Positions 24,525 to 47,154 of a DNA stretch of 55,578 bases are shown piece after piece. The notes under the pieces were generated by a model, which was not told the origin of the DNA, ran no database searches, and saw only the letters and a program-made list of their open reading frames with translations. The number at the start of each line of letters is the position of its first letter. The first letter of the stretch is position 1. A program made the translations under genes and the position numbers. Source of the stretch: a virus (taxonomy: Duplodnaviria; Caudoviricetes); the IMG/VR virus record IMGVR_UViG_3300045120_000280, positions 1 to 55,578 of that record. The stretch is one strand, 5' to 3'.

Positions 24525-24848
24525 ATGTCTGAGATTCAGGGAGCGTTCTTTCAGGAATGCACCCATCCGCACAAGGTCGTTGTAGCGGAAAAGCGCGGGC
24601 CGCACACAGCCAAGCTGGTTTGTAAACACTGCAAGAAATTCTTCCAGTGGGTGCCATCCGCTGAGAACGTCCAGCAGCGCAAAGAGAACACTGAAATTTT
24701 AACTGCGCTCGCCAAGCTGGAGCTGCCAGCATGGGAGCGCGAATTCGTGAGGACACTCGTCACTCACAGAAACATCAGTCCCAAGCAGCAGACGAAGCTA
24801 CTTGAGCTGCGGGACATCTACCTGAAAGACAAGAGGACTCACGTATGA
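24525..24848 (+). CDS. Zn-ribbon protein upstream of the primase
   Basis: C.H....GPH.AKL.C..CKKF.QW motif, then a helical WE..F...S.KQ segment. Confidence 0.7.
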   Translation: MSEIQGAFFQECTHPHKVVVAEKRGPHTAKLVCKHCKKFFQWVPSAENVQQRKENTEILTALAKLELPAWEREFVRTLVTHRNISPKQQTKLLELRDIYLKDKRTHV

Positions 24849-26767
24849 CCGTATCCATGGTGAAACGCTGTCACCAGACCGAAACCAGCCCCATCACGTT
24901 TGAGGAAATCTGGTCGGTCACACGCAACGGAGATCACGGACTCAAAGAGAAGATCACGCAAATACGTAACCGCTACGAAGCTGAACGGGATATAACCGGA
25001 GATGCGGTGAAGGCCAAGAAAGCTGTGGCCGACCTGAAGATGGAGCTGCCGGGATTCCTGCCTTCGGGGACGTTCACCACGCGCAACAATAACGCTCTGG
25101 TGGAATACTCCGGAATCCTGTGCGCCGATCTGGACTCCCTTGGTGACCGGTTGACCGCCATCAGGAACACGCTCAAGGACATGCCGTTTGTCCGGGCTAT
25201 CGCGCTGTCGCCATCAGGAGACGGGCTGAAGGTTTTCTTTAACGTCATTAACGATCCACTCAGGCATGAGGACTCGTTCCGAAACATCAAAATAGGCATC
25301 CGGGAGAGCCTGGAAGTGGATATTGACGAAAAGTGCAAAGACCTGGCCCGAATCTGCTTCTTTACGTACGATCCTGACCTTTGGGTCAGAATGGACGGCA
25401 ACGAGATATTTCCGCCTGCGGAGCCGTTGCCCCGGGGTAGGACATTTGTAGGAAACGCTCCGCATGATCCTACAAGTCTGACGTCAGCCGACGTCAACTC
25501 GCGCGAGCAGATCGCGTTCAGGCTCCTTGGGGAATTGCGGCCCGCGCCGGAGAAGGGCGGCTTCTTCGTGGCTTGCCCCGGGGTTGGCTTCCACACCAAC
25601 AAGAGCGGGGATAAGCACACCATTTTATTTCTGGAAACTGTCCCTACATTGCATTGCCAGCATTTGAGTTGTTCCCATGTTGTTGAGTCCTTCAACAAGG
25701 TGCTCCGCTCGGAAATCGCCAAAGCCGAGTTTCGGCCCGAGCCGCCGAAAGACCCGTTTGGGAAGAATGGAGCGGCAGTCGAGGACGACACCAAAAAAGA
25801 AGACGAATGGGCGGAATCCCTTGGTAAATCGTTCGTTACGTCGAAAGAACTGAAGGGACTCACCATCGTCCCGAGGAAGAAACTCATGGACGAGTGGTTC
25901 CGCGAGGGCGATTTGGGTTACATCTTCGGATTCCGTGGAGTGGCCAAAACATGGTTTGCCCTTGGACTGAGCACCGCGTTATCCACAGGGGCGAAATTCG
26001 GGGAATGGCCAGCGCACGAAGCCGTGGAAGTGGCCTATCTGGATAGCGAAATGCCAGCCGAGGACATTCGTTCCCGCGTCCTGGGGCTTGGATTGGACGA
26101 AAGCGAGCATTTCCACCTTCTGAACCATGAGCTGCTGTTTGAGCGCACCGGCAAGGTGGTCAACGTCAACAACATCGTCATCCAGAAGGCGATTACGCGC
26201 TATTGCATCCTGAACCGGATTCAGGTGCTGGTCGTGGATAACCTTTCCACGGCGGCCTACGGCATGCGGGAGAATGAGGCCGATAGCTGGGAGCAGATGA
26301 ATCGCTGGCTGCTTGAGTTACGGCGCGAGAAGATTTCCGTGGTCATCGTCCACCACGCGGGCCGCGCGGGCAACATGCGCGGCACTTCCAAGCGCGAGGA
26401 TGCGGCATTCTGGATCATTCAGCTCGATGACGCCAAGAAAGACTCCGACGACCGCAATGGCGCGCGGTTTATCACCCGATTCACTAAAGCCAGCCGGAAC
26501 ACCCAAACGGACGTTCCAGCCTACGAATGGCACTTCCTGACCGACTTCGCCACCAACGAAGTGTCCGTAACCTGCAAGAAAAGCGAGGGATTGGCCGTAT
26601 TCCATGCCGTGCTGGAGTCCGGAGTCACCAAACCCAGTGAGATCGCCAAAGTGATGGGAATTCAGGATTATCAAGTTTCCAGGCTCGCCAAGAAAGCCAT
26701 CGACATGGGGTGGTTGGAAAGAGCCAGCCGAGGCGAATACCGACTGGTTGAAATTAGCCCATCATGA
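24845..26767 (+). CDS. Primase-helicase (BT4734/VirE-N-type N-terminal domain plus AAA_25 RepA-like helicase)
   Basis: PSGTF..R....YSGILCADLD, SPSGDGLK, KDLARICF; Walker A GFRGVAKT, YLDSEM, VVDNL, HHAG..MRGTS; C-terminal HTH. Confidence 0.85.
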   Translation: MTVSMVKRCHQTETSPITFEEIWSVTRNGDHGLKEKITQIRNRYEAERDITGDAVKAKKAVADLKMELPGFLPSGTFTTRNNNALVEYSGILCADLDSLGDRLTAIRNTLKDMPFVRAIALSPSGDGLKVFFNVINDPLRHEDSFRNIKIGIRESLEVDIDEKCKDLARICFFTYDPDLWVRMDGNEIFPPAEPLPRGRTFVGNAPHDPTSLTSADVNSREQIAFRLLGELRPAPEKGGFFVACPGVGFHTNKSGDKHTILFLETVPTLHCQHLSCSHVVESFNKVLRSEIAKAEFRPEPPKDPFGKNGAAVEDDTKKEDEWAESLGKSFVTSKELKGLTIVPRKKLMDEWFREGDLGYIFGFRGVAKTWFALGLSTALSTGAKFGEWPAHEAVEVAYLDSEMPAEDIRSRVLGLGLDESEHFHLLNHELLFERTGKVVNVNNIVIQKAITRYCILNRIQVLVVDNLSTAAYGMRENEADSWEQMNRWLLELRREKISVVIVHHAGRAGNMRGTSKREDAAFWIIQLDDAKKDSDDRNGARFITRFTKASRNTQTDVPAYEWHFLTDFATNEVSVTCKKSEGLAVFHAVLESGVTKPSEIAKVMGIQDYQVSRLAKKAIDMGWLERASRGEYRLVEISPS

Positions 26768-27007: not shown

Positions 27008-28057
27008 ATGACCCCCACCCCCACAATTCTAATAGGGGATGCGGCGGAAATCCTTTTGACGCTGCCTGACCGGAGCGTTCAAATGTGCGTTACGTCGCCC
27101 CCATACTACGGCCTCAGGGATTACGGTGATCCGCGCCAGCTCGGAGCTGAAGCCTCACCGGAGCTGTACATCATGCGGCTTGTCGAAATCAGCCGGGAGA
27201 TTCGCCGGGTTCTCAAGGACGACGGCACCTTCTGGCTGAACCTTGGAGATTCCTACTACAACTACAGGCCCGGGGCTGGGCAGGCACTGGTCAAGCAGAC
27301 CGTTTCGTCAAGTGGACAAGACCTTCCCCAGCTTTGTCCACGGCGGGGCAATGTCCTTTCCGGTTTCAAAGAGAAAGACAGGATGATGATTCCGGCGATG
27401 ACTGCCATAGCCTTGCGGGGCGATGGCTGGTGGCTGCGGGACGAGATCGTGTGGCACAAACCCAACCCGATGCCGGAGTCCGTGACCGACCGCACCACCA
27501 AGGCGCACGAATTCATCTACCTTTTGACCAAAAATCAGGACTACTACTACGATGCCGAGGCGATCAAGGTGCCGTATTCACCGGCAACCATGCCGCGCAT
27601 GGCGCGCGGCGTCAGCGATCACCACAAGAATGTTGACGGTGCCCCGGGGCAGACGCCACATTCAATGAACCAGCCTCGCCTCCACAGTGACTACAGCGGG
27701 CAGGCTACGAAGGATTACGAGCTGGCACTCGCGCAGAATCCCAGTGATTCCAAGCGGCGTATCGAAGAATCCATCCTCAATGGCACGGGCGCGAACAAGA
27801 AAAGCGTGTGGACTGTGGCCACTTCACCCTATCCCGACGCTCACTTCGCCACCTATCCTCCCGACCTTATCAAGCCCTGCATCCTGGCGGGCAGCAGGTA
27901 TGGCGACACGGTGCTTGACCCTTTCGGCGGGCGAGGTACAACGGGCGAAGTGTGCATTGAACTGGGAAGGAACGTCATCCTGATAGAACTGAACCCCAAG
28001 TTTGCCGCGTTGTGCGAGCACAGTGTCAACACCACGCCGGGTCTGCCCTTCCTATGA
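27008..28057 (+). CDS. Beta-class N4-cytosine/N6-adenine DNA methyltransferase
   Basis: Motif IV TSPPY precedes motif I DPFGGRGT; WHKPNPMPES and HFATYP segments resemble the M.Cfr9I/M.SmaI family. Confidence 0.92.
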   Translation: MTPTPTILIGDAAEILLTLPDRSVQMCVTSPPYYGLRDYGDPRQLGAEASPELYIMRLVEISREIRRVLKDDGTFWLNLGDSYYNYRPGAGQALVKQTVSSSGQDLPQLCPRRGNVLSGFKEKDRMMIPAMTAIALRGDGWWLRDEIVWHKPNPMPESVTDRTTKAHEFIYLLTKNQDYYYDAEAIKVPYSPATMPRMARGVSDHHKNVDGAPGQTPHSMNQPRLHSDYSGQATKDYELALAQNPSDSKRRIEESILNGTGANKKSVWTVATSPYPDAHFATYPPDLIKPCILAGSRYGDTVLDPFGGRGTTGEVCIELGRNVILIELNPKFAALCEHSVNTTPGLPFL

Positions 28058-28275
28058 GCCGCAACAAGCCTGCCGCCTACCATGCCGCCAAAAAGAAGAT
28101 GAAGCTGGAACGCCTGGTGGAAAAGTATTATGGGAAGCTGGCATTGTTGCAGGCATGGGAAGGCAGACGAGATGCCGACCCTGCTTACATCAGAGAATTG
28201 AAAGTGAAAGTCAGAATGTACAAAAACGACCTTACCTACCGAGGACACGACGATGTTAGTGATATACCCGTTTAG
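28054..28275 (+). CDS. Hypothetical protein (73 aa)
   Basis: ATGA-coupled. Confidence 0.6.
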   Translation: MSRNKPAAYHAAKKKMKLERLVEKYYGKLALLQAWEGRRDADPAYIRELKVKVRMYKNDLTYRGHDDVSDIPV

Positions 28276-29977
28276 CATAACCGATGAAGATCAGGCGTTG
28301 AAGAACGCTGAGTGGATTGCGGAGCTGGGGCCATATAAGAACCATGACATCGTTATCCTGTCCGACCGGCGATGCGACATTGGCATTTCTCAGGGAATCG
28401 TTGACGCGCTGACTCCAGTTTTCAAACACGCCCAACACCAGATCGCTCCGGCTGACATAGACGGGTGGCCGCAGGGAGCCAACTATATGTTCGGCTACAG
28501 CACCTGCATGATTGCGAACAACCCGCACGAATGGCCTTACTTCCTGTGGCTGGAGCCGGACGCCATTCCCATGAGGCGGGGCTGGCTTGACGATCTGGAC
28601 GCGGCATACCAGCGGGGCGGAAAGCCTTTCATGGGCGAGAAGGTTGACCTTGGAGAGAAGCGACCCGACGTACCAATCCATATGTCCGGGGTAGGCATCT
28701 ACCCCAACCCGATTGTGAACTACGCCGGTGAATGCTCCCGAGCGCACGACGTCGCGTGGGACATCGCCGCCAAGGATCAGATCCTGCCCAAGTGCCACTT
28801 CACAAAACTGATTCAGCACTACTGGAAGCATGGAACTTTCATCAACCTGAATCCTATCAGGGAAGAAACCGTGCTGTTTCATTCTTCAAAGGACGGGAGT
28901 CTCATAGATGTCCTTCGGAAGCAGGCTGCACCGGGCCTTAATCAAAACTCTGTCCCGACAGAACCGACGAGTGATAAGTCCTCGCGCGAAGAAATCGGAA
29001 CTCGGGCGGTGCAGCCTTCCATTAAGAAACTTCGTGACGGAACATGGGTTTTGGAGAACGATACGATCAGCGGCCAGATCATAGACACAGGACGCCTTGA
29101 TTTTGATCCCCTCATTCCTCACATCCTCAAACTCATCAGACCCGGTGATACCGTGGTTGATGCTGGTGCTTTTATTGGGGATCATACTGTTGCGTATGCT
29201 GACGCGGTAGGCAAAGAGGGCGAAGTCTACGCCTATGAACCAAACCCAGTGGCGTTCCAGTGCCTGGTTCATAACACCAACGGCATGTCGAACGTCTTCG
29301 GGTTCTGCCACGCACTGGGAGCGCAGGATGGTGTAGCCGGTCTGGTGGGAGAGTGGCCCGCAAACTTCGCCTCGCATTTCATTTCCCATAACAACTCCGA
29401 GCATGGCCCGGTCATACAGGTCAGGCGACTGGACATTGACGCGGCCCTGTTTCACCGGCTTGACCTTATCAAGATAGACGTTGAGGGCTACGAGCTGAAC
29501 TTGCTTAAGGGCGCGGAACAAGTCATCGAAAAATTTCACCCCACAATGGTGATTGAGATTAACGAGATTGCCCTCAAGCGACAGAACGCCACCGCCGAAG
29601 ACGTCATCAGCTGGGTGGTTCGCCATGGATATGAAGTGAGCGTTCTTCATCGCCATGGCGAGGGTGTTCCCTTCTACGACATTCTAGCTTTGCCAGCGGC
29701 AAAACCACCGGAGGATGTCAGCAGCACGGCTGCCCATGCACCGAATCAGTTCGTGACTGCTCCTCCAGTGGTGCCGACTGTTAAGGAAGAAATCGAATGG
29801 CACGTTGGAGTGCTGAAACAATTCTGTGAAAACTCACCACAAACCAAGGCTATCGTTCATCAGAAACTGGTGTATGCTGGTCTTAGAAAACCTAACAACA
29901 CAAAGAAACATGCCTCAAAAACTCATCGCACAACCAACGGGCAACGTAGGCCCGCTGCTGAAGAATGCCAAACCTGA
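28253..29977 (+). CDS. Glycosyltransferase-like domain fused to an FkbM-family methyltransferase
   Basis: N-terminal GT-A-like WLEPDA (ExD); C-terminal VVDAGAFIG, YEPNP and IKIDVEGYE FkbM motifs. Confidence 0.8.
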   Translation: MLVIYPFSITDEDQALKNAEWIAELGPYKNHDIVILSDRRCDIGISQGIVDALTPVFKHAQHQIAPADIDGWPQGANYMFGYSTCMIANNPHEWPYFLWLEPDAIPMRRGWLDDLDAAYQRGGKPFMGEKVDLGEKRPDVPIHMSGVGIYPNPIVNYAGECSRAHDVAWDIAAKDQILPKCHFTKLIQHYWKHGTFINLNPIREETVLFHSSKDGSLIDVLRKQAAPGLNQNSVPTEPTSDKSSREEIGTRAVQPSIKKLRDGTWVLENDTISGQIIDTGRLDFDPLIPHILKLIRPGDTVVDAGAFIGDHTVAYADAVGKEGEVYAYEPNPVAFQCLVHNTNGMSNVFGFCHALGAQDGVAGLVGEWPANFASHFISHNNSEHGPVIQVRRLDIDAALFHRLDLIKIDVEGYELNLLKGAEQVIEKFHPTMVIEINEIALKRQNATAEDVISWVVRHGYEVSVLHRHGEGVPFYDILALPAAKPPEDVSSTAAHAPNQFVTAPPVVPTVKEEIEWHVGVLKQFCENSPQTKAIVHQKLVYAGLRKPNNTKKHASKTHRTTNGQRRPAAEECQT

Positions 29978-29999: not shown

Positions 30000-30569
30000 T
30001 TAAGCCGGTTGAAGCCGGTAGGTAAAATCTCCATCCGTCGCTGGGACGTCAGGCCATAGCTCGTAGAGATAGTTCCGGGCTTTGTCACCGGAATTGTGTT
30101 CGATGTCGGGATTGATTTGCTTGGCCAGCGCGTAACCGCACTCGCCACTGGTGTAATCAGGGCCAATCTCTCCGACCACGCCTTCCTTTACCACCTTCGT
30201 TATCAGGTTGGTAACACGGCCACGGCATCCCATAACAACCCCGGGCAGCTTGGCCCGAACCTGTGGAGGGACGACAATGTATTTGTCCACATCGGCGTTC
30301 AGGTATTTGCCGCCCTGTATACCGCCGGAATAGTATGCGGTCTGCGATTGGTGGTGCTGATCTCCATGCGATGGCCCGCTGCCATCGTTGCAAATATCCA
30401 GGTCACTTTTGAATTTGCAGTACGTTCCTTCCTTGTTCCTGTAGAAGTTCACCCCATCAATGGTGAGGAAAATATCCACATTTTCTTCTTCCACTTCCGG
30501 AGCTGCTGCTTCCTTGGGAACGGTGATAACAAGTACGTCCCCGGCTTTGAGTGTTATGTTCTTTGTCAT
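30000..30569 (-). CDS. GH75 chitosanase-like hydrolase (candidate lysin)
   Basis: DLDICNDGS, QSQTAY, LNADVDKYIVVP, G..VTN, VVGEIGP, GEC..ALA match the GH75 motif order. Confidence 0.65.
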   Translation of the reverse strand: MTKNITLKAGDVLVITVPKEAAAPEVEEENVDIFLTIDGVNFYRNKEGTYCKFKSDLDICNDGSGPSHGDQHHQSQTAYYSGGIQGGKYLNADVDKYIVVPPQVRAKLPGVVMGCRGRVTNLITKVVKEGVVGEIGPDYTSGECGYALAKQINPDIEHNSGDKARNYLYELWPDVPATDGDFTYRLQPA

Positions 30570-33500
30570 TAGTGTCGTCCTCTGTGTGGTTTCCTCGACG
30601 GTGTTTTCACATGCGAGGAATAAGTATTCACGCTTGCCCCGAAATTTTCAAGCACAGCTATTGCCACTCCGGCAGCCAGTCCATGCTCCACGGTGGCCTT
30701 GTAAATGTCCATGCCGTTCAGCGGCAGCACTAGGCCACCCAGCTCCCCGGCCCATGTGGCAGGTTCTCCGGTCACCTTCTGGCCAGCCTGCGCGTTAAGT
30801 ATTGCCGAAGGTACTGGCGCAAACTTGGTTCGCAGGAAATCCCACACAACACCGGGAAGATTTCTTGCAGTGAATGGCCGACCCGGCCCCTGCTTGAGCG
30901 AAACTATCTGCCCTGATGAAGTTTTGGTGTTATGCGTCCCGAACCGGCTCATGATTGTCAGTGTCTGTGCCAGTCCCGCCAGCAGGTCAATGCGGGTGTT
31001 GCCAATCTTGATCTTCCCGAAGTCGGTGGAGAGAGGGTTCTTCTCGATGCTGACTCCAGCCTGCTTTCCGAGCATGTTAATCAACCCGTAAACCACTGAG
31101 TACCCCACCAGTGTCCTGCCATACTCCCATGCGATGGCTTTCCTGACAGCGGCATCCTTGGCGTAACGAAGTGGCTGGAAGGTCAACGCCTGAAAGCGCG
31201 ACATCACATACCGTGGGGCGAAGAACAACTCGTTGAGTGCCGCTATGCCTCCGGCGTACTGCTCCGGTATGTGGCCGCGCCCGGTGAAGACATTGATGAA
31301 ATTGGAAAGTCCCTTGGCCTGATCCAGCGTGAGCTGCGCCCCGGCCTTCTCTGCAACTGAATCCGCCATGACGTCAAAGGTATCCGCACGCAGCCGGTTC
31401 AGGAAATAAACGTAGGCGCGCTGGCTGTGGTTAAGCAGCGGGATTTTGTCCACCCACGCGCTCATGTAGGCTTCTTCCAGCTGTGACATCTTGGGATTCT
31501 TGATGTCGGTCAGGCCGAGCTTGGACTGCTGGTACAATGGAGCATTGGGACGCTCCCTGATGTCCTGCATCAGCTTGAAGTAATTAAAATCACTCTTGGC
31601 GGAACTGAAGGTGTCCTTCATCAGTCCAAGGGAACGCAGCGGATGACCGGAAAAGAGTAGCCCGCCCTGCCGGAGCAGCGCGCTGGTCAGGTCAGCGGTC
31701 ATGATCGACCGGGACACGCCAGCCACGTTGCGGTAAAAACGGAACGTCTTCTGGAGCTTATTCTGGTGCTTCAACACCTGATTGAAGACCGTTTCATCCA
31801 GTGCCTGCTTGGCCTTGAAGACGTCCTCCTGCCTGTGGCGCACCTGCCCGACGTCGCCGCCCTTGCCCTGACCGGGCCGCCATCCTGAGCTGACCTTTTC
31901 CCGCTCCAGTGCAGCCTGCGCCCTGCCCAGCTTGGCCACCTTGCGCGTGAGGTCTGCCGTCTCCGCCGGAGTCACGGGTTCTCCCTGCTTGGCGATTGCC
32001 AGCTTCTGCTCCATGGCCGGAACGTCGTAGTCCTTGGCCCTGAACTGATGCCATTGTAACTGGTTGGCCTTGCCACGGATTTTGTCTCCATTATTGGTGG
32101 CCTCCTCCATCTGCCGGATTCCGTTGTCGGCCTTTTCAAAATCAGCCGCCGCGCTGGCCCTCTCACCCGGTGTAATCTTCGCGTTCAACGCCACCTTGCC
32201 CGCCTGATCGCGCGAATTGGCGAGCAGCCCCCTTCGATCCACAACTGCCTGCTCCTCGATGGGATCGAGATGTGTTCGCTCACCTGTTCCCAGCTCCTTG
32301 ACCAGCCTGTCCGGGTAATAAGGGTTGGCTGCCGTTCTGGCACGCGCCTGAGTTTGAATATCCTCCCGTGACAGCACCGGCCTTGGTTCATTTGCCGCTA
32401 TGAAATCGTTGGCCGCGCCATTGTCGCTGAACACTCCAAGATGCTGGCCCGTGTCCCTGTAACGGGAAATGGCCTGCGGGACAGTGAGCGGATGACCGGC
32501 TTCATCCACGGTGGGAATGACCACGCTGCCTCTTTCATTCCGGATTGGAATCGAGCGTACGGCGGGCGCATCATCATTGTAAACCGGTGCCCGAGTGTTG
32601 TAGTCGATGTTGCCGCGCTCGACCATGCCCGGGGTATCATTGACGCGAGGGCCGTAATTGGGCTTGGCCTTTGGCTCGGCAATCATGCCGGGTTCGGACG
32701 GCGGCCTTGCCTGCGCGCGTGATTCCGGCCTTGGTGCTTCCACTGATTCCACTGGTAGGCCGGGGCCGGGACGAGCTGCTCCACCGGCGGCAACTTCTTC
32801 AGCTCCGGCTGCCTGCCGTTGCTGCTGGTCGCTGGGCGGTGCTGGCGGGGGAGGCAGTTTTTTGGGTGGAGGTTTCAGCGAGGTGGGAGGAGGCTTCTCC
32901 ACTTTGCCGCCCGTCATCGACGGATTGCCCTGTGCATCCACGTAAACCCATCTGCCATTGACGAATGTCTTCTGTCCAGTGCGTTCAAAGGATGGTTTCC
33001 AGAAAGCGGTAGTGTCGGTCTTGGGTTCTCCCCCAGCCGGTGGAGCGTCCTCAGGGAGAGGCTGGGTTGACCGGCCAGGTAATCCATACTCCTGACTGTT
33101 GAAAGTGGCCCGCAGGTCGCGCTTCCACTGCGGCATATCCTTCTCGTTGTCCAGAAGGTATTGACCGATGTTGGCGACGGCGGTTGAGCCTTCTCCCTGC
33201 GCCGAGGGCGCGCGGTTGGTTGCCCCGAAGCGCACCGTGCCTCCGGCATACAATCCATCCATAGGGACGTTGGTTTTCGCTCCGGTGAACCCGACGTTCT
33301 CCCTCTTGAGAACCTGTAACTTGTCATTGGTTACGATTGCTCCAAAGGGTTTCACCTTACTCCTGAGTGCCGCAGCGGGCATAAAATCAGAGGCTGGAAT
33401 ACCTCCCATGAACTGCGCCAGCGTGTCAGCTTTTACGGTTGCGGCTTCGGTTACCGGATTCTTGTCGGAATCCAGTTTTACGGAGCCATCGGCATTGGTG

Positions 33501-36283
33501 ATTGTTTTACGGGTATGTGCAATCACCCTGTTCCCATTCGCATCACTGGGAGCTTCTATGGAAACTATCTGTTCATAAGGATGCAGCACCAGTTTCTTAT
33601 TTTTAATGGCATCTTCCAGTCGGGGTCGAAGGTAATCGCTGGCCTCCGGAATCCCACTCCTGTAAATAACATGCACCGGGCCAGCTCCTGATTCGGCGGC
33701 TGATAGCGCGCCCTGAATTGACGAGTTCGCTCCGCCGAGAAAAATAGCTGACCCTTCCTTGCCAGCGGCTTTCGCTTTTCTCATGGCGGAAATCGCGCCC
33801 GTGGCCTTGTCGTAGATTTTAACCCCGCTTTCGTCTCCCGGAGTTCCGGTCACGCCACGCTCGGTAACGATCTTATTATTAGAGTCCACAATATCGAAAG
33901 GCAGGCCGCGTCCCCTCACGCCGGTGGCAACCAGGATGGTTCTGCCAGTAAATGTTTGACCTCCTTCTCCATTAGGGCCAGGCCCAAGAGTTCTGATCGT
34001 CCACATTTTAGTCACCGGGTCTTGGACAGGCTCACCTGCAATGCCGCGAACCTTTTCAAACTGCGCTCCCATCCGCATGGCCCGCTGGCGGCTGTTCAGG
34101 GCCACGCTTGCTCCCATGTCACCGAAGGGATTTGTTCCCATGGTGTTCTCAAGGACAGTTTGATTGGTGGCACCGCCATAGTCAGGGCCGGACTCCAGAA
34201 CGGTTACGTTGTGTCCTTCCGCAGAGGCGGAAATTGCTCCCTGTAGTCCCGTGTTTCCGGAACCAAGGATGATTACATCCTGATCCTTACCCCCGGGCAG
34301 CTCGGACTCCAAGGCACGCTGCTGCTTGCGGATTTCTATCTGCCGCTCCACGATGGGCTGCTGCTTGTCCCTGTTGCCGGAGAGTTTCACGCCCTCGTTG
34401 TCCAGCCTGCCCCATTCGGCCTCCAGTGCCTGGTAAGTCTTCCACTTGTCGGGAGATAAAAGTTTCTCAATGGGTGCATCATGCGTGTCCGGAGTGTCCG
34501 GCGGCGATTCCTTTAGCGGCGTGGTGTTCTCCTTTGTAGCCGGAGGCGGAGCCTGCTTGCGCTCAAACGGCGTCATGTCCACGCCCTTTTTAGTGAGGTC
34601 GTTGTAGTCCGACTCCATCATGCTCTGCATGGTGTCGGGAATTGGCTGACCGCTGTCCCTGAGAGCAGTCGCTTCCTGCATTCGCTTAATGGCGTTCTGG
34701 GTCGGGACATCATATACCCAGATCGGCCCCATCCCCATGTCTCTTTGCTCAAGACCGCTTGCCTTGGCCTGGTTATCCTCGGCTTTCTGCCTTTCTTCGT
34801 GCGCTTCCTTGAGAGTTTTCGCTACGAAAAGCGGAGGGATATTCCGCTGCCTTTTGTCAACAATGTTGTAAGTGCCATCGGCATTTGCCTCAATGGCGAT
34901 GTCAGGGCCAGCGGCGGTTTTAGCCGTTGCGGCTTGTGATGCCTGCTCTGACTTGTCAGCCTGCTTCTTGTTCAGGTAATCTGCCTGCGCCTGTGCGCGT
35001 TCCTGACCCTGATCCCCGGTGAACCGGCCTTCATCCAGGTCAGGCGGGTCACCCTTTTTTACTACCAGCCAGACACCCTGTTGCTTGATGACACCGTATT
35101 GTCCTACCGGGACTTCCGCCGTTGCTCCAGTGCTATCGCCACCATCTGCTGGTTTGCTTTCAGTTGTCCGAACTTTTTCAGCGTCCGTTGATACTGCGGC
35201 CCCTGCCGCAGCTCCTTCAGATTTTGTTTCATCACCTGTTTGCTCTGTCCCTGTTTTAGCGGCATCTGCTGGTTCTCCTTTTTTTGGTTTGTAGTAACGG
35301 GTTTCGTTTCTTATCGGATCATGGACTGCGATAATGTCTCCGATCTTGACCTGTGCTTCGACGTCAGCGGGGATGTCCGACCCTTTAAGTTCAACCATCG
35401 TCTCACCGACTGATTCACCGGGCGGCTTCTCCTCGTTGGGAGTGGTGTACTTAACCCCGGGTCTTTCGCGGGTGAACGCCAGCGGCGGCACGATGTAGCC
35501 CTTGCCAGGAAGTGGCACCGGTTGGAAAGACGTAGTAGGGAAGGCTTTCTTGGCTGCCCAATGCGCTCCCGGAACTAACAACGCGGCGTCTTCCCATGCC
35601 GTCTGGGCTGACTCCGCTGGTGAAAGCTGGTTCGTTGCGGCCCGCCAGTTCTTCTTTAGAAAATCTATCCCCCCGGGCGCAAACTCAGCACCCAGGAATG
35701 CCAGTCCAGCTGGTGGAAACAGGGCAGTTGCTCCCAGCTCCAGCAGGCCACGCGGGGAGGTGACAAAATCACTCAGGGCAGCTCCGGTATTGGCAGCCCC
35801 TCTTGCTTGCGTCTGGACAAAGTTTCCGGTTTCCGGAGTTTTTCCGAACAGGTATTGCGACCACACTGGAGCGTCAGCACCGCCCGGTCTGGGAAACGGG
35901 CCTGCCACTGGCCGCCCTGTTAGCTCCATGATGTTGCCGAAGTTCACCTGATCCGCAGACGCACCCGGCACAAAGTTCTTCCTGGCCAGAGCGACTTCAG
36001 GGCCAGGCTGAGTCAGGAGCTTGTTCAGGAACGACCCCGGATCGCTCATTATGTTTATTGCCTTGTCTGTCTCCGGGGTGCTTGGCGGAGAAGGAGAAGG
36101 CGACATCCCTTGTGGCGGGGATGCCTGTGGAGGCGGAGACGAACCCGTCGAGGGTTGTGGCCCGAGATCAGATAAATCTACATCCCGTCCCTGACCACCG
36201 GCCTGTGATTCAACTGGCGGCGGGCCGAGGTCGGAAAGATCAGGATCACTGTTGGTCTGTGATGACTGTGAGACCGGGGTCAC
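30569..36283 (-). CDS. Giant internal virion/DNA-ejection protein (1904 aa) with an embedded TrxB-like flavoprotein domain
   Basis: Last of three ejection-type genes; N-terminal DLSDLGP repeats; C-terminal helical/hydrophobic domain; FAD/NAD(P)-binding fold at about 33152-34285. GTG start is uncertain. Confidence 0.8.
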   Translation of the reverse strand: MTPVSQSSQTNSDPDLSDLGPPPVESQAGGQGRDVDLSDLGPQPSTGSSPPPQASPPQGMSPSPSPPSTPETDKAINIMSDPGSFLNKLLTQPGPEVALARKNFVPGASADQVNFGNIMELTGRPVAGPFPRPGGADAPVWSQYLFGKTPETGNFVQTQARGAANTGAALSDFVTSPRGLLELGATALFPPAGLAFLGAEFAPGGIDFLKKNWRAATNQLSPAESAQTAWEDAALLVPGAHWAAKKAFPTTSFQPVPLPGKGYIVPPLAFTRERPGVKYTTPNEEKPPGESVGETMVELKGSDIPADVEAQVKIGDIIAVHDPIRNETRYYKPKKGEPADAAKTGTEQTGDETKSEGAAAGAAVSTDAEKVRTTESKPADGGDSTGATAEVPVGQYGVIKQQGVWLVVKKGDPPDLDEGRFTGDQGQERAQAQADYLNKKQADKSEQASQAATAKTAAGPDIAIEANADGTYNIVDKRQRNIPPLFVAKTLKEAHEERQKAEDNQAKASGLEQRDMGMGPIWVYDVPTQNAIKRMQEATALRDSGQPIPDTMQSMMESDYNDLTKKGVDMTPFERKQAPPPATKENTTPLKESPPDTPDTHDAPIEKLLSPDKWKTYQALEAEWGRLDNEGVKLSGNRDKQQPIVERQIEIRKQQRALESELPGGKDQDVIILGSGNTGLQGAISASAEGHNVTVLESGPDYGGATNQTVLENTMGTNPFGDMGASVALNSRQRAMRMGAQFEKVRGIAGEPVQDPVTKMWTIRTLGPGPNGEGGQTFTGRTILVATGVRGRGLPFDIVDSNNKIVTERGVTGTPGDESGVKIYDKATGAISAMRKAKAAGKEGSAIFLGGANSSIQGALSAAESGAGPVHVIYRSGIPEASDYLRPRLEDAIKNKKLVLHPYEQIVSIEAPSDANGNRVIAHTRKTITNADGSVKLDSDKNPVTEAATVKADTLAQFMGGIPASDFMPAAALRSKVKPFGAIVTNDKLQVLKRENVGFTGAKTNVPMDGLYAGGTVRFGATNRAPSAQGEGSTAVANIGQYLLDNEKDMPQWKRDLRATFNSQEYGLPGRSTQPLPEDAPPAGGEPKTDTTAFWKPSFERTGQKTFVNGRWVYVDAQGNPSMTGGKVEKPPPTSLKPPPKKLPPPPAPPSDQQQRQAAGAEEVAAGGAARPGPGLPVESVEAPRPESRAQARPPSEPGMIAEPKAKPNYGPRVNDTPGMVERGNIDYNTRAPVYNDDAPAVRSIPIRNERGSVVIPTVDEAGHPLTVPQAISRYRDTGQHLGVFSDNGAANDFIAANEPRPVLSREDIQTQARARTAANPYYPDRLVKELGTGERTHLDPIEEQAVVDRRGLLANSRDQAGKVALNAKITPGERASAAADFEKADNGIRQMEEATNNGDKIRGKANQLQWHQFRAKDYDVPAMEQKLAIAKQGEPVTPAETADLTRKVAKLGRAQAALEREKVSSGWRPGQGKGGDVGQVRHRQEDVFKAKQALDETVFNQVLKHQNKLQKTFRFYRNVAGVSRSIMTADLTSALLRQGGLLFSGHPLRSLGLMKDTFSSAKSDFNYFKLMQDIRERPNAPLYQQSKLGLTDIKNPKMSQLEEAYMSAWVDKIPLLNHSQRAYVYFLNRLRADTFDVMADSVAEKAGAQLTLDQAKGLSNFINVFTGRGHIPEQYAGGIAALNELFFAPRYVMSRFQALTFQPLRYAKDAAVRKAIAWEYGRTLVGYSVVYGLINMLGKQAGVSIEKNPLSTDFGKIKIGNTRIDLLAGLAQTLTIMSRFGTHNTKTSSGQIVSLKQGPGRPFTARNLPGVVWDFLRTKFAPVPSAILNAQAGQKVTGEPATWAGELGGLVLPLNGMDIYKATVEHGLAAGVAIAVLENFGASVNTYSSHVKTPSRKPHRGRH

Positions 36284-37271
36284 GTTCCTTTGCCTCCTGA
36301 AGTTTGTTGGCGTAAATCGGCATCTGCTTTCCGGAAGATGTCCTGACCGTCACCACACCTCCTGAAGCCGGAACAACACCGATGTCGGGATGGTTAATGG
36401 GTGCAGCCATGTTTTTCCAACGGGCATCCAACTCTGCCCGTTTCTGCTGGAAAGAGTTTATCGTTCCCATGTCCACCTTGGCCAAGACATTACCGTTGAC
36501 GTCCTTGATTATCTTCCTGCCGGTTGGCGTTGCGCCATAGCTGGTGCCAAGGTATCCGCCCACCTTCTCGTCCTCCAGGTCTTTCGGACTCATGTACCAG
36601 TTCTTGTTCTGTAGCAGGGCATTTCCGCCACCGAGCGTTTGCCCGATGTTGTCATTGAACAGCTGTTCGTCCGTTTTCAGGGCGCGATAATTCTGGTCGC
36701 GCACCGTGTTGGCCTGACGCATCAGGTTAGCGGCTGCCGTCTGAATAGCGGCTGACGTACCGGGTAGTTTTCCCCACTCTGACTGAAGTTTCAGAATGTC
36801 CCGTTCGTACGGCGGCGTGCCTGGCTGGCTATCAAGCAATGAAGCTGCCTGATTGAACCCGGCGGTGGCTTCTGCCTCGTTCCTTTTGAGTGAGTCCTGG
36901 TTATCAAGCCTTGTTTGCCTGATCTGAATCGCCCAGTCCCGGTTATCCTGCGCCCTGTCCCTGTCCTTGCCAGCTTCAATGTCTTTTGCCTTGTCCCAGT
37001 TCAGCCGGTCGTAAAACTCCTTCATCTGGGTGTCCTGCTTTTCCTTATCCCACTGGAATTTTGCTTCCCTCATTGCGTTCTCATGCTGCATCTGTGAAGC
37101 GCGAAGATTGTACTGAGCTAACTGGTTTTCGTAGTACTGCTGTTTGGCATTGTTATTGGCGTGAGCCTGCCAGGCGTTTGTTCCTTCCCGGAATCCGGAC
37201 ATGACGGCTCCCGCGATGTCGGGTGACGCCACTGTGGGTATTTGAACTGATGGTGAGAATTCGTTAGCCAT
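36246..37271 (-). CDS. Internal virion/ejection protein (341 aa)
   Basis: Q/N/A-rich coiled coils; position in the ejection cluster. Confidence 0.65.
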   Translation of the reverse strand: MANEFSPSVQIPTVASPDIAGAVMSGFREGTNAWQAHANNNAKQQYYENQLAQYNLRASQMQHENAMREAKFQWDKEKQDTQMKEFYDRLNWDKAKDIEAGKDRDRAQDNRDWAIQIRQTRLDNQDSLKRNEAEATAGFNQAASLLDSQPGTPPYERDILKLQSEWGKLPGTSAAIQTAAANLMRQANTVRDQNYRALKTDEQLFNDNIGQTLGGGNALLQNKNWYMSPKDLEDEKVGGYLGTSYGATPTGRKIIKDVNGNVLAKVDMGTINSFQQKRAELDARWKNMAAPINHPDIGVVPASGGVVTVRTSSGKQMPIYANKLQEAKERDPGLTVITDQQ

Positions 37272-37272
37272 G

Positions 37273-38271
37273 TTAGATGTTTCCTCCCGGGATGTTTAAG
37301 TATCTTTGATTGGGATCATACCCTGGTTGATACGAAATGGGATTGTATGACCCGCCTGCCGGGTTGACGGAACTGGGCGGCGGGACTGAGTTAAATGAGT
37401 TAGGAGGCGGCGGGTAGTACAGGCTGCCATCCGGATTGGTCTGGAATGGAGTCGCGTTATACTGGATGGTGGCGTTCGCACCACTGTCACTGCCGCCTAT
37501 CTCATACGGCTGTCCGGTAAGTTTAGCCCACTGTCCCGAAATGCTGTCGCTAGAAGGGACACTCTTGATTGCTGATGCACCTGTCTGGGCTGAATTCATT
37601 GAGTTACCAGCTCCAAAGCCGCCTCCCGCGTACGCACCAAGAATGCTTCCTGCCAGTCTCCCGCGATCAGCCCATGCCGGGTCTGGTTGGGCATTCTCGA
37701 TTGCCTTTTGCAATTTTGCATCACGCTGGGCCGCATACTGTTTCGCCATGAAGTCGGTGTACCACTGCGGGCTGTAAAGATATGCGTTCTCAGGCAGCAT
37801 GGTGCCCTTGGCTATCTGCTGCCATCTCTGTGTTGCGTTGCCACCGGCGGCAGCGGCGTCTATCCCGGCTTTCTGGTAATCCAGTAGCCCGCCCGGGCCA
37901 GCGAAGAAATTACGAATCTGGTTCGCTCCTCCTGCGGCTGGATTCCAGAACCCCATTCCGCTTGTCAGGTTCTGCTGCGCCCCGAATCGTCGCAGGGCGT
38001 CCTGAGCTTCCGGTGGAATGTCTCCCTTCTGCCATGCCAGCGCGTTCTTTTCTGTCTGGAGAGCATTCTCTCCACCGGCAGCCAGCAGACCGGGAAGGTC
38101 AAATCCCATCTCGCTAAACTGGTTCTGCTGGAACAGCTGGCTGAGTTGCTGAATCTCCGGCCAGTCGGTGATCTCCCCGTTGAGGAGCCTTTTAAGCATT
38201 TCATCGGGATCGGTTTTCTTAAAATCCGGAACCTTGACCTTCGTACCATGAATCAGTGTTGATAATGACAT
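37273..38271 (-). CDS. Internal virion/ejection protein (332 aa)
   Basis: Gly/Ala/Gln-rich with an LAGSILGAYAGGG segment. Confidence 0.65.
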   Translation of the reverse strand: MSLSTLIHGTKVKVPDFKKTDPDEMLKRLLNGEITDWPEIQQLSQLFQQNQFSEMGFDLPGLLAAGGENALQTEKNALAWQKGDIPPEAQDALRRFGAQQNLTSGMGFWNPAAGGANQIRNFFAGPGGLLDYQKAGIDAAAAGGNATQRWQQIAKGTMLPENAYLYSPQWYTDFMAKQYAAQRDAKLQKAIENAQPDPAWADRGRLAGSILGAYAGGGFGAGNSMNSAQTGASAIKSVPSSDSISGQWAKLTGQPYEIGGSDSGANATIQYNATPFQTNPDGSLYYPPPPNSFNSVPPPSSVNPAGGSYNPISYQPGYDPNQRYLNIPGGNI

Positions 38272-38274
38272 ATT

Positions 38275-39723
38275 TTAGCTCCCGTAACCGCCGACATCGC
38301 CCAGTCCAAAACCATAGGTCTGGATATGGACGGTGTGCCTGATTCCTGACAGGTAATTTTTGAGTTCCTTGTCCAAAATGTCCAAAGCCTGCTGCTGATC
38401 CACCTGTGCCAGCTGGGCAATCTGAGGATTAGGATTCTCCTCTTTCATTTTGGCTGACACCATCAGCCTCAGGGCTTCGTAATTCCTGATAACCATCAGG
38501 TCACCAGGTTCTTTCAAGACCCATTTCAATTTACAGACTGCGGTGAATGAAGTCCCAACGTCGCAGCTGGCGATCAGTTTGTAAGCCCTGCGCGGAGCGT
38601 TAAACCCGGGCTGCAACTTGTTGCCTTGGTCAATCAGCATGGAACAGCCCGGAGCACCGCCAGGCCCGTTCTCCAGAAACTGAAAGAACTGGCTTCTGAT
38701 GGGGATAGGCCGTCCACAAAGATCAACCGCCAGAACCGATTCCACGCTGGTGGGCATGTAAAGGAGGCCGCCAAGCACCGTCCCGTGGATGGTAACCACG
38801 GTGTCTTTCCAGATGCCGCGCTCCATGAGCCTGCGCTCGGCCTGCTGGATTGTCCATGTAAGGTCACGCTTGGACATGCGGAGAGCTTCCGGGAGATCGA
38901 GCGCGATCTGGGCGCGCACCCAGCCCAGCGTGTTTTCCCTGAAGTTCACAATGTCCTCCAGATACCCGGACTTGCGGTGCATGTAGTTGCGGGGATCGAA
39001 GATGTGCTTCTTGACCTCGGCCTGAAGGATGTCCATCCCGCTCTGCCGGTACTTCTGGGCCTCGTCCGGGGAGTTGTTCTCGTAACGCTCGATGGAAAGG
39101 ATGATGCACTTAATGGCCTCGATGTTCTGGATGATGAGGTAATCCTCGTCCCCCTTGAGCGGGAGGTAACGCTTCGCTCCGGTCACCTGGATAACTGCAT
39201 TGGCCGGGTTGAGGCCGGGGTAGAAGTAGATTCTCCTGACATCCTCTGGGTCTTCAGGGTTTCCGTTCAGGCCGAAGTCCAGCAGCGGGTTGTCCATGGC
39301 CGAAGCGGGATCGAGATACGCCGACTGGCTCACGATCTCATACCAGACCTGAGTGGTGTCCTTCTTGTTATAGGCAGCGGTCGAGTCTGCGGGAGTCAGC
39401 GGATGCGCCTCAATGATGTTCTCCATGTTCGGCGGGAGCACCAGGAAACGGCTTATGGCGGTGATGTTACAGACCATCATGCCACCAACAGGGATCATGT
39501 AATCCATGATGATTTTCGTGGCCTCGTTCAAACGAACCAGGACACGCGGGTCATCAAATCCCACGCCATTGTCCACGATCCCTGCGATCATGGGGGCAAC
39601 GTCCTTGAACTGCATTCCCCCGGGTATGGGAAGGAAAGCCTGCGGCGGCGGGAACACAATATCCGCCATCTCTGCTGTGTCTGGTGATGTAATCATGTTC
39701 GGTACCCCAGGAAGATTATCCAA
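38275..39723 (-). CDS. Head-tail adaptor (tail tubular A-like), tandemly duplicated domain
   Basis: Two similar halves: RLNEATKII/TIQQAERRL, LVLPPNMENI/LYMPTSVESV, IIQNIEAIK/VIRNYEALR. Confidence 0.6.
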   Translation of the reverse strand: MDNLPGVPNMITSPDTAEMADIVFPPPQAFLPIPGGMQFKDVAPMIAGIVDNGVGFDDPRVLVRLNEATKIIMDYMIPVGGMMVCNITAISRFLVLPPNMENIIEAHPLTPADSTAAYNKKDTTQVWYEIVSQSAYLDPASAMDNPLLDFGLNGNPEDPEDVRRIYFYPGLNPANAVIQVTGAKRYLPLKGDEDYLIIQNIEAIKCIILSIERYENNSPDEAQKYRQSGMDILQAEVKKHIFDPRNYMHRKSGYLEDIVNFRENTLGWVRAQIALDLPEALRMSKRDLTWTIQQAERRLMERGIWKDTVVTIHGTVLGGLLYMPTSVESVLAVDLCGRPIPIRSQFFQFLENGPGGAPGCSMLIDQGNKLQPGFNAPRRAYKLIASCDVGTSFTAVCKLKWVLKEPGDLMVIRNYEALRLMVSAKMKEENPNPQIAQLAQVDQQQALDILDKELKNYLSGIRHTVHIQTYGFGLGDVGGYGS

Positions 39724-46011: not shown

Positions 46012-47154
46012 TTATGGAAGTGGGTTGGGAGTCAGGTCTGAGATTGGTGTCATGACCGTCCATTCTTCGATGTCGCTGTTGTTGTATCCCTGCTTTGCGG
46101 CGTAAGCCTCAATGAACTCAAATTCATTCACCTCAAGAGTGATATGGGGATCATCCGGCGTTTTATCGTAAAGGGCTTCCTGGAAGTCGTCCGGATGAAT
46201 AACGTGCTGCGGCGTCACCCGATAGAACAGACGGGAATCCTTCAGCAATGACCGGATGGTGACATGCGCCTTGACCAGCGAAGGATCATCATCGGTGGGG
46301 TCATGCTTTTCCCACCAGTCCAGCACAATGGTGACATCGGGAACGTGCGGCTGTTTCGCCGCCGCAGGATTAGTGACCACGAAATGATGCCACAGCATGT
46401 CCCTCCCAAGATAGTTTGTAGCTCCAGTTGATCCCGGGTTTGGAACGTATCCCTTCCTTGAGGTCGATGGAGGCACAGGCGGAACACCCTTGCCAAGAGC
46501 TACGGGGAAAAAACGATAAGGAAATTTCCCGCCAGTGAATTTGCTGCAAGGCAGACTAAACATCCCGGCGTTAAATGCCTGCGTCACAAAGAAGGGATAG
46601 ATAAATTCATGATGCTGGGGATCAAACGTCCCATCCGACCCGAACCAGGCATGGGTGGATGGATGATCCCACGTAAAAACGAATGTGCCGCTGTTGGTGA
46701 TTTGGGCCGGGGTCACATGAAGCGGCGGCCTGATCGTAATACCGATTGAGCTGATAGAACCTACGGCGTCCCCCGGGGTGAAGTGAGCCAGAGGAATTTT
46801 ACCGCCCGCGTCGAGCGCAGCGTAGCCGTTGTGCGCTCCTTTACGGGAAAGGAACTCAGCTTTGCTCCCGCGCGCAGCCACCGGAGCATCGGAGATGAAT
46901 ACCAAACCGTCAGTCAACCACGGCGAAGGCATGACACCATTCAGACTGAGCTTACTCTGGTCGATTGCGGCGGTGGCATTCACACTATCGTCGGTCACTG
47001 AGCCGGGAGCTGGCGTTCTTCCTCCTGTCAGCCTGGGGTCATCAATACCTACCAGTCCGTCCGGCACAGGGTCTAACAGGCTGACGTTCCTGATGTCGTA
47101 GTTCTGGCAATCCAGATCATTGGCCAGCACTGCGTTTTCAAGGATAGGGGTCAT
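46012..47154 (-). CDS. Tail fibre-like protein (380 aa), paralog of the adjacent gene 47151..48152
   Basis: MTPILENAVLANDLD...AAIDQSKL.LNG...GYA.LD shared with 47151..48152. Confidence 0.7.
   Translation of the reverse strand: MTPILENAVLANDLDCQNYDIRNVSLLDPVPDGLVGIDDPRLTGGRTPAPGSVTDDSVNATAAIDQSKLSLNGVMPSPWLTDGLVFISDAPVAARGSKAEFLSRKGAHNGYAALDAGGKIPLAHFTPGDAVGSISSIGITIRPPLHVTPAQITNSGTFVFTWDHPSTHAWFGSDGTFDPQHHEFIYPFFVTQAFNAGMFSLPCSKFTGGKFPYRFFPVALGKGVPPVPPSTSRKGYVPNPGSTGATNYLGRDMLWHHFVVTNPAAAKQPHVPDVTIVLDWWEKHDPTDDDPSLVKAHVTIRSLLKDSRLFYRVTPQHVIHPDDFQEALYDKTPDDPHITLEVNEFEFIEAYAAKQGYNNSDIEEWTVMTPISDLTPNPLP

Follow-up and report, generated by a model that had tools for sequence, protein, structure and literature searches.

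Why should a phage carry an entire thioredoxin reductase (TrxR)-like flavoprotein inside one of its largest proteins, and would such a domain still work there as an enzyme? This question is raised by the IMG/VR virus record IMGVR_UViG_3300045120_000280, which was analysed over its whole length (55,578 bases, rated 100% complete; hereafter the window) and in which a single minus-strand gene encodes a 1904-residue, cysteine-free protein that contains the domain. The phage is uncultured, podovirus-like and from soil, and is very distant from described phages. As set out below, the domain is a member of the TrxR fold superfamily and not a thioredoxin reductase, and flavoproteins of this type are a recurrent, exchangeable, cysteine-free cargo of polyvalent virion proteins in uncultured phages.

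A thioredoxin reductase fold within a giant protein

A genuine TrxR fold is almost certainly embedded in the giant protein, as had been proposed in an earlier note made from the sequence of this DNA; Pfam, AlphaFold2 and Foldseek agree on the assignment. Residues 669–1032 match Pfam Pyr_redox_2 over positions 2–291 of a 291-position profile (E 4.8e-11; bit score 43.1, gathering cut-off 26.1), and the motifs that the note had listed are all present, in the same order, in the minus-strand translation of positions 33152–34285. At the sequence level, solved structures are matched weakly (13 at E ≤ 0.01; best E 4.8e-5), all of them thioredoxin reductases or near kin. The AlphaFold2 model of the domain, built on a 66-row alignment, has a mean predicted local distance difference test score (pLDDT) of 94.5 and a predicted template-modelling (TM) score of 0.89. 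In the Foldseek comparison with the PDB, thioredoxin reductases of low relative molecular mass (low Mr) rank first (best E 3.2e-21), with a top TM score of 0.69/0.84 and a root-mean-square deviation of 3.3 Å for the model against 3cty. When compared with two forms of one Lactococcus enzyme, the model is nearer to the flavin-reducing form, 5mh4 (TM 0.67/0.83), than to the flavin-oxidizing form, 5mjk (0.50/0.61). A PHROG match named ‘ribonucleotide reductase large subunit’ (phrog_6397, E 2.5e-10) covers the same residues as Pyr_redox_2, and its name was treated as uninformative.

The fold contains two Rossmann motifs (Table 1). In the first, presumed to hold the ADP part of flavin adenine dinucleotide (FAD), G674 and G676 are kept in at least 90% of 12 relatives, and the GxGxxG pattern is retained in 8 of the 9 family rows that cover the site. 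In the second, the presumed site for reduced nicotinamide adenine dinucleotide or its phosphate (NAD(P)H), residues G850, N853, S854, Q857 and G858 are invariant in 12 rows of the subtype to which the domain belongs (subtype A, defined below). Across these 12 rows, which are 33–64% identical, 32 columns do not vary, and many of those belong to one of the two nucleotide-binding motifs or to the C-terminal flavin motif: GG..T...N, GGANS..QG, an arginine after the β-strand H-x-I-x-R, G..P, and G....G..R.....G.G. Judged from the alignment, this pattern is as expected for a working cofactor-binding enzyme. The absence of the redox-active CxxC and of any cysteine from the domain, and the replacement of the FAD-binding G-D by G-T, were found as previously reported; at the site equivalent to CxxC, more distant subtype A relatives have S-G-V-K-x-H-L-x-D.

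The flanks of the domain had been described as disordered linkers. Proline-rich, low-complexity linkers are indeed present farther out, whereas the fold itself is adjoined on both sides by conserved segments, a helical one before it (approximately residues 603–665) and a P-x-W segment after it (residues 1051–1067), in which P1051 never varies and at least 90% of the 12 rows keep W1053.

A TrxR-like homodimer, formed through helices of the FAD domain, is predicted. Two copies of residues 660–1080 modelled with FAD gave a dimer score of 0.75, against 0.00 for the best of three controls, although TrxR dimers have already been solved, so that the score may come from predictor memory and is taken as a likeness only. 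This score is attained by 20 of the 30 proteins whose solved structure is a pair of one chain, and by 1 of the 23 whose solved structure is a lone chain. At least 47% of contacts recur between runs, the partner pLDDT is at least 79, and the interface consists of FAD-domain helices.

Relatives of the domain

When 1.84 billion representatives were searched exhaustively with HMMER, 486 matches were obtained at E ≤ 1e-3, of which 8 lie at E ≤ 1e-30, all in proteins of 862–2223 residues. Below these come a 195-residue fragment (P0013, E 1.4e-18) and then a gap down to E 3e-12, where matches of approximately 300–700 residues begin. A word-index search found two giants with the domain, the protein’s own cluster and P0004 (labelled ‘thioredoxin reductase’ by JGI); it gave no free-standing relatives of 207–662 residues at E ≤ 1e-3, whereas the exhaustive search gave distant ones. 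No relative was found in a viral contig collection scanned both with the domain and with the family alignment. In a metagenome scan, one close locus was detected (L004, 39% identity), the remaining loci being at most 29% identical.

None of the 22 aligned phage TrxR-like domains contains a cysteine. Subtype A is marked by GGANS..QG and by an insert of approximately 35 residues beside the former disulfide site; subtype B has no insert and keeps G-D in 7 of 9 rows, the other two having G-N (P0167) and I-G-D (P0164). In a quick tree of 19 phage rows and 45 randomly chosen rows from the 137 other matches, the two subtypes each formed one clade (support 100 for A and 99 for B) and, together with P0028, P0039 and P0060, were split from the 42 other rows with a support of 97. 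The stem branch of subtype A is long, at 1.0 changes per column.

The 137 nearest full-length matches outside the 22 aligned phage giants contain CxxC in only 8 cases and GGANS in 53, of which 48 lack CxxC, which bears out the association of GGANS with CxxC-less relatives made in the earlier note. The CxxC-less proteins of this set (approximately 300 residues, or approximately 550 with an N-terminal extension) likewise have a GGANS..Q motif and are 24–32% identical to the phage domain over its full length; the tail R..[ST]A.G[ED]G is found in 54 of the 137. The set differs from the phage domain in keeping the G-D motif in 76 of 137 cases and in having a median of four cysteines per domain. It is not purely cellular, since all five long proteins that were checked are of phage or polyvalent type. 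P0060 combines Phage_portal_3 with Pyr_redox_2 and has a further match to the NCBIfam phage HI1409 model; in P0104, a Phage_portal_3 portal protein, Pyr_redox_2 lies at the end; and in P0039, P0064 and P0122 the TrxR-like domain is fused to an ADP-ribosyltransferase, a zeta toxin and a 2H/LigT phosphoesterase, respectively. In these five proteins, and in P0121 and P0028, the domain lacks CxxC and has zero or one cysteine. The portal fusion P0060 matched 1139 GenBank phage records; among the 25 matches listed, only the portal part was matched, and no record at all had a coverage of at least 80%.

Integrity of the fusion and a diverged cassette

Parts of the window are held by 20 rows of public sequencing runs, all of them soil metagenomes, from 17 studies. 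The domain borders were examined in contigs of three soil runs (X2, X3 and X4), which belong to three other studies and none of which is the possible source of the record. Run X2 contains a single contig of 2089 nt (positions 32831–34919) with one difference; in X3, contigs cover 32831–33577 and 33754–34742, and in X4 they cover 32708–33334 and 34185–34605. Both borders are bridged in all three runs with 0–2 differences, and no joints or indels were reported. The guanine plus cytosine (G+C) content is even across the giant gene (0.54–0.62), the surrounding open frame (1926 residues) has no internal stops, and the same architecture occurs in relatives from JGI, Logan and ENA. Misassembly at the domain borders had been raised as a concern; with three runs bridging both of them, the fusion is genuine.

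Comparison with P0004 showed that the domain lies in a cassette that has diverged strongly between otherwise near-identical backbones. Identity is approximately 95% over residues 79–466, drops to approximately 63% over residues 467–1091 and rises to approximately 99% (7 mismatches) over residues 1092–1904. In P0005, a third allele, the domain has 64% identity. Contig breaks lie near the cassette borders (32831 in X2 and X3, and 34919 in X2), which hints at cassette alleles co-existing in one soil; differences in depth between cassette and flanks were not used, as contig depths sum over organisms.

A conserved anchor with exchangeable cargo

Residues 1480–1904 match 194 giant proteins of 1047–3332 residues at E ≤ 1e-3, of which 120 were listed. 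Relatives without the TrxR-like domain align only from approximately residue 1307 onwards, which defines a conserved C-terminal anchor preceded by a variable N-terminal two-thirds. The earlier note had suggested surveying homologous proteins for presence and absence of the domain. By local hmmsearch it was present in 17 of the 120 listed relatives, all within the top 22 by anchor similarity, and in none of the other 98. Others of the 120 carry different cargo on the same anchor, comprising ART-PolyVal with PBECR5, GGDEF with ART-PolyVal, PBECR3, ddrB-ParB, RadC, GNAT and Sigma70_r4; in the giant protein of the window, the flavoprotein is the only enzymatic domain recognized. The domain is thus very probably cargo of a polyvalent protein family.

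The AlphaFold2 model of the anchor (residues 1480–1904) has a pLDDT of 89.9. Its matches in BFVD are viral giants (top E 3.6e-21 and 4.7e-17), and rows named ‘Large polyvalent protein associated domain-containing protein’ follow at E 3.7e-4 to 2e-3. Three relatives without a TrxR-like domain (P0159, P0160 and P0166) gave no matches in a PDB sequence search. Some precomputed labels of family members, namely ‘nitroreductase’ for P0215 (JGI), PF02195 for P0187 and PF26092 for P0223, were not reproduced at E ≤ 1e-4. Two subtype A domains, in P0007 and P0012, lie in giants outside the 120 listed anchor-module relatives, and P0007 also has a GHKL ATPase domain. A ParB-like stretch was noticed by eye in both.

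Absence of cysteine

The giant protein contains no cysteine in 1904 residues, whereas the other 27 open reading frames (ORFs) tabulated contain 109 in 11,902 residues, a difference with a chance probability of approximately 2.5e-8. This composition is a property of the family, as 122 of 125 family giants contain no cysteine and the remaining three contain one each. It is also found in T7 gp15 (747 residues) and gp16 (1318 residues), both established by experiment as ejected proteins, with T7 gp14 having a single cysteine; in the Klyazma internal virion proteins IVP-B, IVP-C and IVP-D; in the 1582-residue giant of MW202497; and in three genes of L004. We infer that proteins which exit the virion unfolded and pass through an oxidizing compartment are constrained to lack cysteine.

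The missing CxxC had been taken as a hint of a ‘catalytically altered decoy’. That argument is weakened by the cysteine-free state of 122 of the 125 giants and of T7 gp15 and gp16, and by the presence of CxxC in only 8 of the 137 nearest matches. As the outside kin are largely CxxC-less and the family is cysteine-free, the missing disulfide is ancestral and is also enforced by the carrier protein; it is therefore no indication of lost activity. The domain cannot use thiol chemistry, because cysteine is nearly absent from the family.

Three further ORFs of the window encode proteins without cysteine, at 42682–44454 (minus strand, 590 residues), 47151–48152 (minus strand, 333 residues) and 22321–24270 (plus strand, 649 residues), and have no Pfam or PHROG match. 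Two of them, which lie in the structural block, might be internal or ejected proteins.

Virion context of the giant gene

The giant gene belongs to a minus-strand block in which tail-fibre PHROG matches also occur. Upstream of it are genes for two small cysteine-free proteins, which are candidate internal virion proteins, and for a 482-residue protein with a feature score of 0.97 to SU10_adaptor (PF24175) clusters in the ESM Atlas (27 of 30 matches). L004 keeps the same order of four genes, consisting of a homologue of the 482-residue protein (68% identical), two small genes and a giant ORF of more than 2241 residues with the domain. The 482-residue protein does not resemble the ‘phage stabilization protein’ of MW202497. 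A motif of approximately 80 residues in the giant protein (residues 1210–1287) matches SPN1S gene 0017 (E 4e-8), which comes after two genes named ‘internal virion protein’, and the Klyazma ‘IVP-C-like protein’ (E 8e-6).

The status of the giant as a virion or ejection protein is one that we infer from this context. Its designation as a DNA-ejection protein in the earlier note stands as far as the placement of the gene in a virion block is concerned; solved ejectosome proteins gave no structural match, and the support is indirect. Among the new evidence, the cysteine-free composition weighs most. With gene order and composition taken together, the giant protein is likely to be packed in the virion and injected.

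Proposed function and alternatives

These results can be combined into a reading that we hold to be evenly poised, in which the domain travels as cargo of a polyvalent virion protein, is injected, forms a dimer and works as an NAD(P)H-dependent flavin oxidoreductase with a non-thiol acceptor. The giant protein would be packed in the capsid with the two small cysteine-free proteins encoded upstream and would be ejected with the DNA, largely unfolded, as are T7 gp14–gp16. In the host cytoplasm the domain would refold, take up host FAD and dimerize via its FAD-domain helices. It would then oxidize NAD(P)H, passing hydride to the flavin and electrons on to a non-thiol acceptor, for which a flavodoxin- or ferredoxin-type protein, a quinone, free flavin, a metal chelate and O2 are candidates. 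It would in this way act like a ferredoxin–NADP reductase (FNR), and not as a thioredoxin reductase, and would shift the redox state of the host’s pyridine nucleotides or flavodoxin in the first moments of infection. We lean slightly towards the domain being a catalytically active flavoenzyme, and consider any one named physiological target improbable. A link to pyridine-nucleotide supply, as might be imagined from the ADP-ribosyltransferase fusion P0039, is speculation.

Several observations weigh against the domain being an injected flavoenzyme. Within the fold, all 12 subtype A rows with coverage of the FAD-binding Asp site have Ser or Thr there, GxGxxG is replaced by G-G-G-P-T-N in one relative (P0009), and the domain scores 43.2 bits against the NCBIfam TrxR equivalog TIGR01292, missing the cut-off of 343.45. 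FAD that is bound non-covalently would be lost on unfolding and would need to be regained in the host. With regard to delivery, the anchor has no convincing counterpart among solved structures, ejectosome proteins included (Foldseek best E 0.64; VIA-align best Z 3.8); the giant protein has no strong hydrophobic helix (maximum 19-residue Kyte–Doolittle value 1.42), owing to which the idea of a membrane anchor was dropped; no lytic domain was found in it; and the adaptor assignment of the 482-residue protein is a language-model lead only. As for distribution, a tblastn search with the domain found nothing at E ≤ 1e-3 among 50,697 GenBank phage records, which leaves no cultured system to work with, and a TrxR-like ORF piece was present at none of 57 more distant anchor-module loci in metagenome-assembled genomes (MAGs), which shows that the domain is dispensable for the protein family. 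The MAG labels of these loci span many phyla and are unusable as hosts.

The loss of the FAD-binding Asp and the long stem branch of subtype A would also suit a fold that was kept while its redox chemistry was lost, leaving a binder of a dinucleotide- or ADP-ribose-type ligand (a sensor, decoy or sponge) or a dimerization or spacer module that sets oligomeric state or length. We regard such a change of function as unlikely, yet worth serious attention. A pure spacer or dimerization module could account for the well-kept predicted interface, which may itself reflect predictor memory; the invariant residues, however, cluster in both nucleotide-binding motifs and extend beyond the dimer helices. 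The strong divergence of the cassette between near-identical backbones resembles that often seen in binding surfaces under an arms race, while subtype B retains the canonical G-D in 7 of 9 rows and the nearest outside matches are also GGANS-bearing and CxxC-less. A stoichiometric sponge would be poorly served by the low copy number of virion internal proteins (in each virion, approximately 3 gp16 and 12 gp15 molecules according to the T7 record), which would favour a catalytic role over a stoichiometric decoy.

The lack of a structural match to solved ejectosome proteins and of hydrophobic helices, with packaging and ejection deduced and not observed, would suit a giant protein that stayed behind and acted in the producing cell or in the capsid, for instance as an internal core or scaffold, with the domain working in late infection or assembly. 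This is improbable in view of the cysteine-free composition common to T7 gp15 and gp16 and the Klyazma internal virion proteins, of family cargo (ART-PolyVal, PBECR and ddrB-ParB) that PMC5512222 reads as injected early effectors, and of the fusion of a like domain to portal proteins. That the domain is a true thioredoxin reductase, or another disulfide reductase borrowing the thiols of a second chain, is suggested by its best sequence and fold matches, and is nevertheless very hard to sustain when cysteine is absent from all 22 aligned phage domains and from the whole protein, when the score falls at 43 bits against a 343-bit equivalog cut-off, and when the predicted arrangement resembles the flavin-reducing form with no disulfide site. 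A chimera of a bacterial TrxR-like gene and a phage structural gene, produced in assembly, has nothing found in its favour and is judged to be already refuted by the contigs of three other studies that span both borders with 0–2 differences and no joints, and is further opposed by the recurrence of the architecture in relatives from several sources, the even G+C content and the single open frame without stops.

Comparison with known systems

The low-Mr thioredoxin reductases (TrxB, TIGR01292; 3cty, 5mh4 and 1f6m) have the same two-Rossmann FAD/NAD(P)H fold as the phage domain, with an identical order of motifs. The phage domain differs from them in having neither CxxC nor any cysteine, in having Thr in place of the FAD-binding Asp and GGANS in place of the usual second glycine motif, in its additional insert of approximately 35 residues beside the former disulfide site, and in being embedded in a 1904-residue protein. 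[quoted passage not shown] In the Foldseek search, 6gar and 3ab1 match at E 6.9e-19 and 2.2e-18, below the true thioredoxin reductases. TrxR-like FNRs are defined by an important C-terminal extension, an aromatic residue of which stacks on the flavin. In place of this extension, a conserved P-x-W segment peculiar to the phage domain follows the fold; that this segment serves as a flavin-stacking lid is speculation. NAD(P)H-dependent reduction of ferredoxin or flavodoxin by TrxR-like FNRs is described in two reports (PMC10294844, PMC8564101).

Polyvalent proteins of phages and conjugative elements, which are predicted by Iyer et al. 2017 (PMC5512222) to be injected with the DNA, are likewise giant, multidomain and encoded among virion genes in phages, and the family of the giant protein resembles them in its ART-PolyVal, PBECR, ddrB-ParB, RadC and GNAT cargo. 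A redox flavoenzyme would be of different chemistry from the nucleic-acid- and protein-modifying cargo in that text. The terms thioredoxin, flavin, FAD and oxidoreductase do not occur in the main text of PMC5512222, the supplementary domain lists of which could include a TrxR-like domain, and the main text of a later survey by the same group (PMC9503650) has no occurrence of thioredoxin. The earlier note knew of no described ejection protein with such a domain; none, whether ejection or polyvalent protein, was found in the literature searched, these two main texts included, although automatic annotation had labelled relatives ‘thioredoxin reductase’.

The internal virion proteins of podoviruses, such as T7 gp14, gp15 and gp16, are encoded by three consecutive genes that end in a giant and lie beside tail or adaptor genes, an arrangement that the giant gene and its neighbours here probably share, and T7 gp15 (0/747), gp16 (0/1318) and Klyazma IVP-D (0/1603) are as free of cysteine as the giant protein of the window. 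The motif of approximately 80 residues is common to the giant, SPN1S gene 0017 and Klyazma’s IVP-C-like protein, with no other sequence or fold similarity to internal virion proteins. The giant has no transglycosylase domain, whereas T7 gp16 bears an endolysin domain according to its record annotation, and no flavoprotein.

The virion-delivered effectors known so far act by modifying nucleic acids or proteins or by breaching the cell wall; with an injected flavin oxidoreductase, this repertoire would extend to the redox and pyridine-nucleotide chemistry of the host. The broader proposition is that phages of this lineage inject a cysteine-free, NAD(P)H-dependent flavoenzyme in working form, which would be the first case of a redox enzyme delivered as a phage effector; we advance it tentatively and with more doubt than belief. 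If it were true, DNA entry would be followed within seconds by a reset of the host’s NAD(P)H/NAD(P)+ ratio or of its flavodoxin/ferredoxin pool, and the first seconds of infection are when NAD-centred defences and phage counter-measures are decided. Such a reset could feed NAD+-consuming partner effectors, a use with which the fusion of P0039 to an ADP-ribosyltransferase fits, power nucleotide synthesis, or starve or short-circuit redox- or NAD-dependent defence; the diverged, exchangeable cassette would then be the trace of an arms race over a host target. The family constitutes a natural experiment in which one anchor bears alternative cargo (flavoenzyme, ADP-ribosyltransferase, RNase, GGDEF, ParB and others) and alleles are swapped between near-identical backbones. 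Near-total absence of cysteine is a simple compositional marker that could help to recognize ejected proteins in uncultured phages. The domain is small, confidently folded in prediction and directly testable for FAD binding and NAD(P)H turnover.

Features and other genes of the window

The coordinates of the features described are collected in Table 1.

Table 1 Features of the giant gene and its upstream neighbours (positions in the window; residues of the giant protein)
Feature	Position	Strand	Basis or remark
Giant polyvalent virion protein (status deduced from context), 1904 residues, cysteine-free	30569..36283	-	GTG start, stop included, single ORF
Conserved C-terminal anchor module defining the family, approximately residues 1307–1904	30572..32365	-	Family comparison
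Motif of approximately 80 residues common to internal-virion-type proteins, residues 1210–1287	32423..32656	-	tblastn
Diverged cassette carrying the flavoprotein domain, residues 467–1091	33011..34885	-	Comparison with P0004
Conserved P-x-W-K..L-R..F-N segment just after the fold, residues 1051–1067	33083..33133	-	12-row conservation
TrxR-fold FAD/NAD(P)H two-dinucleotide-binding domain, residues 667–1044, subtype A	33152..34285	-	Pfam, AlphaFold2, Foldseek
FAD ‘GD’ motif with Thr for Asp, G-L-Y-A-G-G-T-V-R, residues 1010–1018	33230..33256	-	Alignment
Second Rossmann motif, G850-G-A-N-S-S-I-Q-G-A859, presumed NAD(P)H site	33707..33736	-	Conservation
Position of the TrxR redox-active CxxC, G820-V-K-I-Y-D-K-A-T-G829, no cysteine	33797..33826	-	Alignments
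First Rossmann GxGxxG, G674-S-G-N-T-G679, presumed FAD ADP site	34247..34264	-	Read from the sequence
Conserved helical segment just before the fold, approximately residues 603–665	34289..34477	-	Family consensus
Candidate small internal virion protein, 341 residues, cysteine-free	36246..37271	-	25% identical to same-place L004 gene, E 2e-14
Candidate small internal virion protein, 332 residues, cysteine-free	37273..38271	-	29% identical to same-place L004 gene, E 3e-17
Possible head-to-tail adaptor, 482 residues, lead only	38275..39723	-	ESM Atlas

At the N terminus of the giant protein (residues 1–80; 36043–36283, minus strand), the short motif D-L-S-D-L-G-P occurs twice and is followed by T-P-x-T-D-x-A. 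Relatives have a duplicated short N-terminal motif of their own, followed by a T-D-Q-A signature as here, and the conservation of this signature favours a start at the upstream GTG over one at Met79, the start assigned to P0004. The duplicated motif might be a packaging or processing signal. Seven small contigs of a soil metatranscriptome (run X15) lie on the giant gene (31514–35389), five of them without differences; they are no proof of transcription and may be carried-over DNA.

Across the whole record the G+C content is even, at approximately 0.55, and no tRNA genes were found. Among the large ORFs searched, neither Pfam nor PHROGs identified a terminase, a portal or a major capsid protein. 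Two adjoining DNA methyltransferase-like genes follow immediately downstream of the giant gene on the opposite strand, at 27008–28057 (plus strand; phrog_67, E 1.4e-67) and 28253–29977 (plus strand; phrog_8156, E 2.1e-23). The protein encoded at 24845–26767 (plus strand, 640 residues) combines BT4734-like N-terminal (E 7.9e-23) and AAA_25 (E 1.1e-21) domains and is probably of the replication primase/helicase type. On the minus strand, the genes at 44451–46010 and 50943–52517 form a paralogue-like pair that matches the same PHROGs (30390, 2647 ‘head decoration’, 27782 and 11518 ‘tail fiber’), and the region at 53701–55413 matches collagen-like tail-fibre families.

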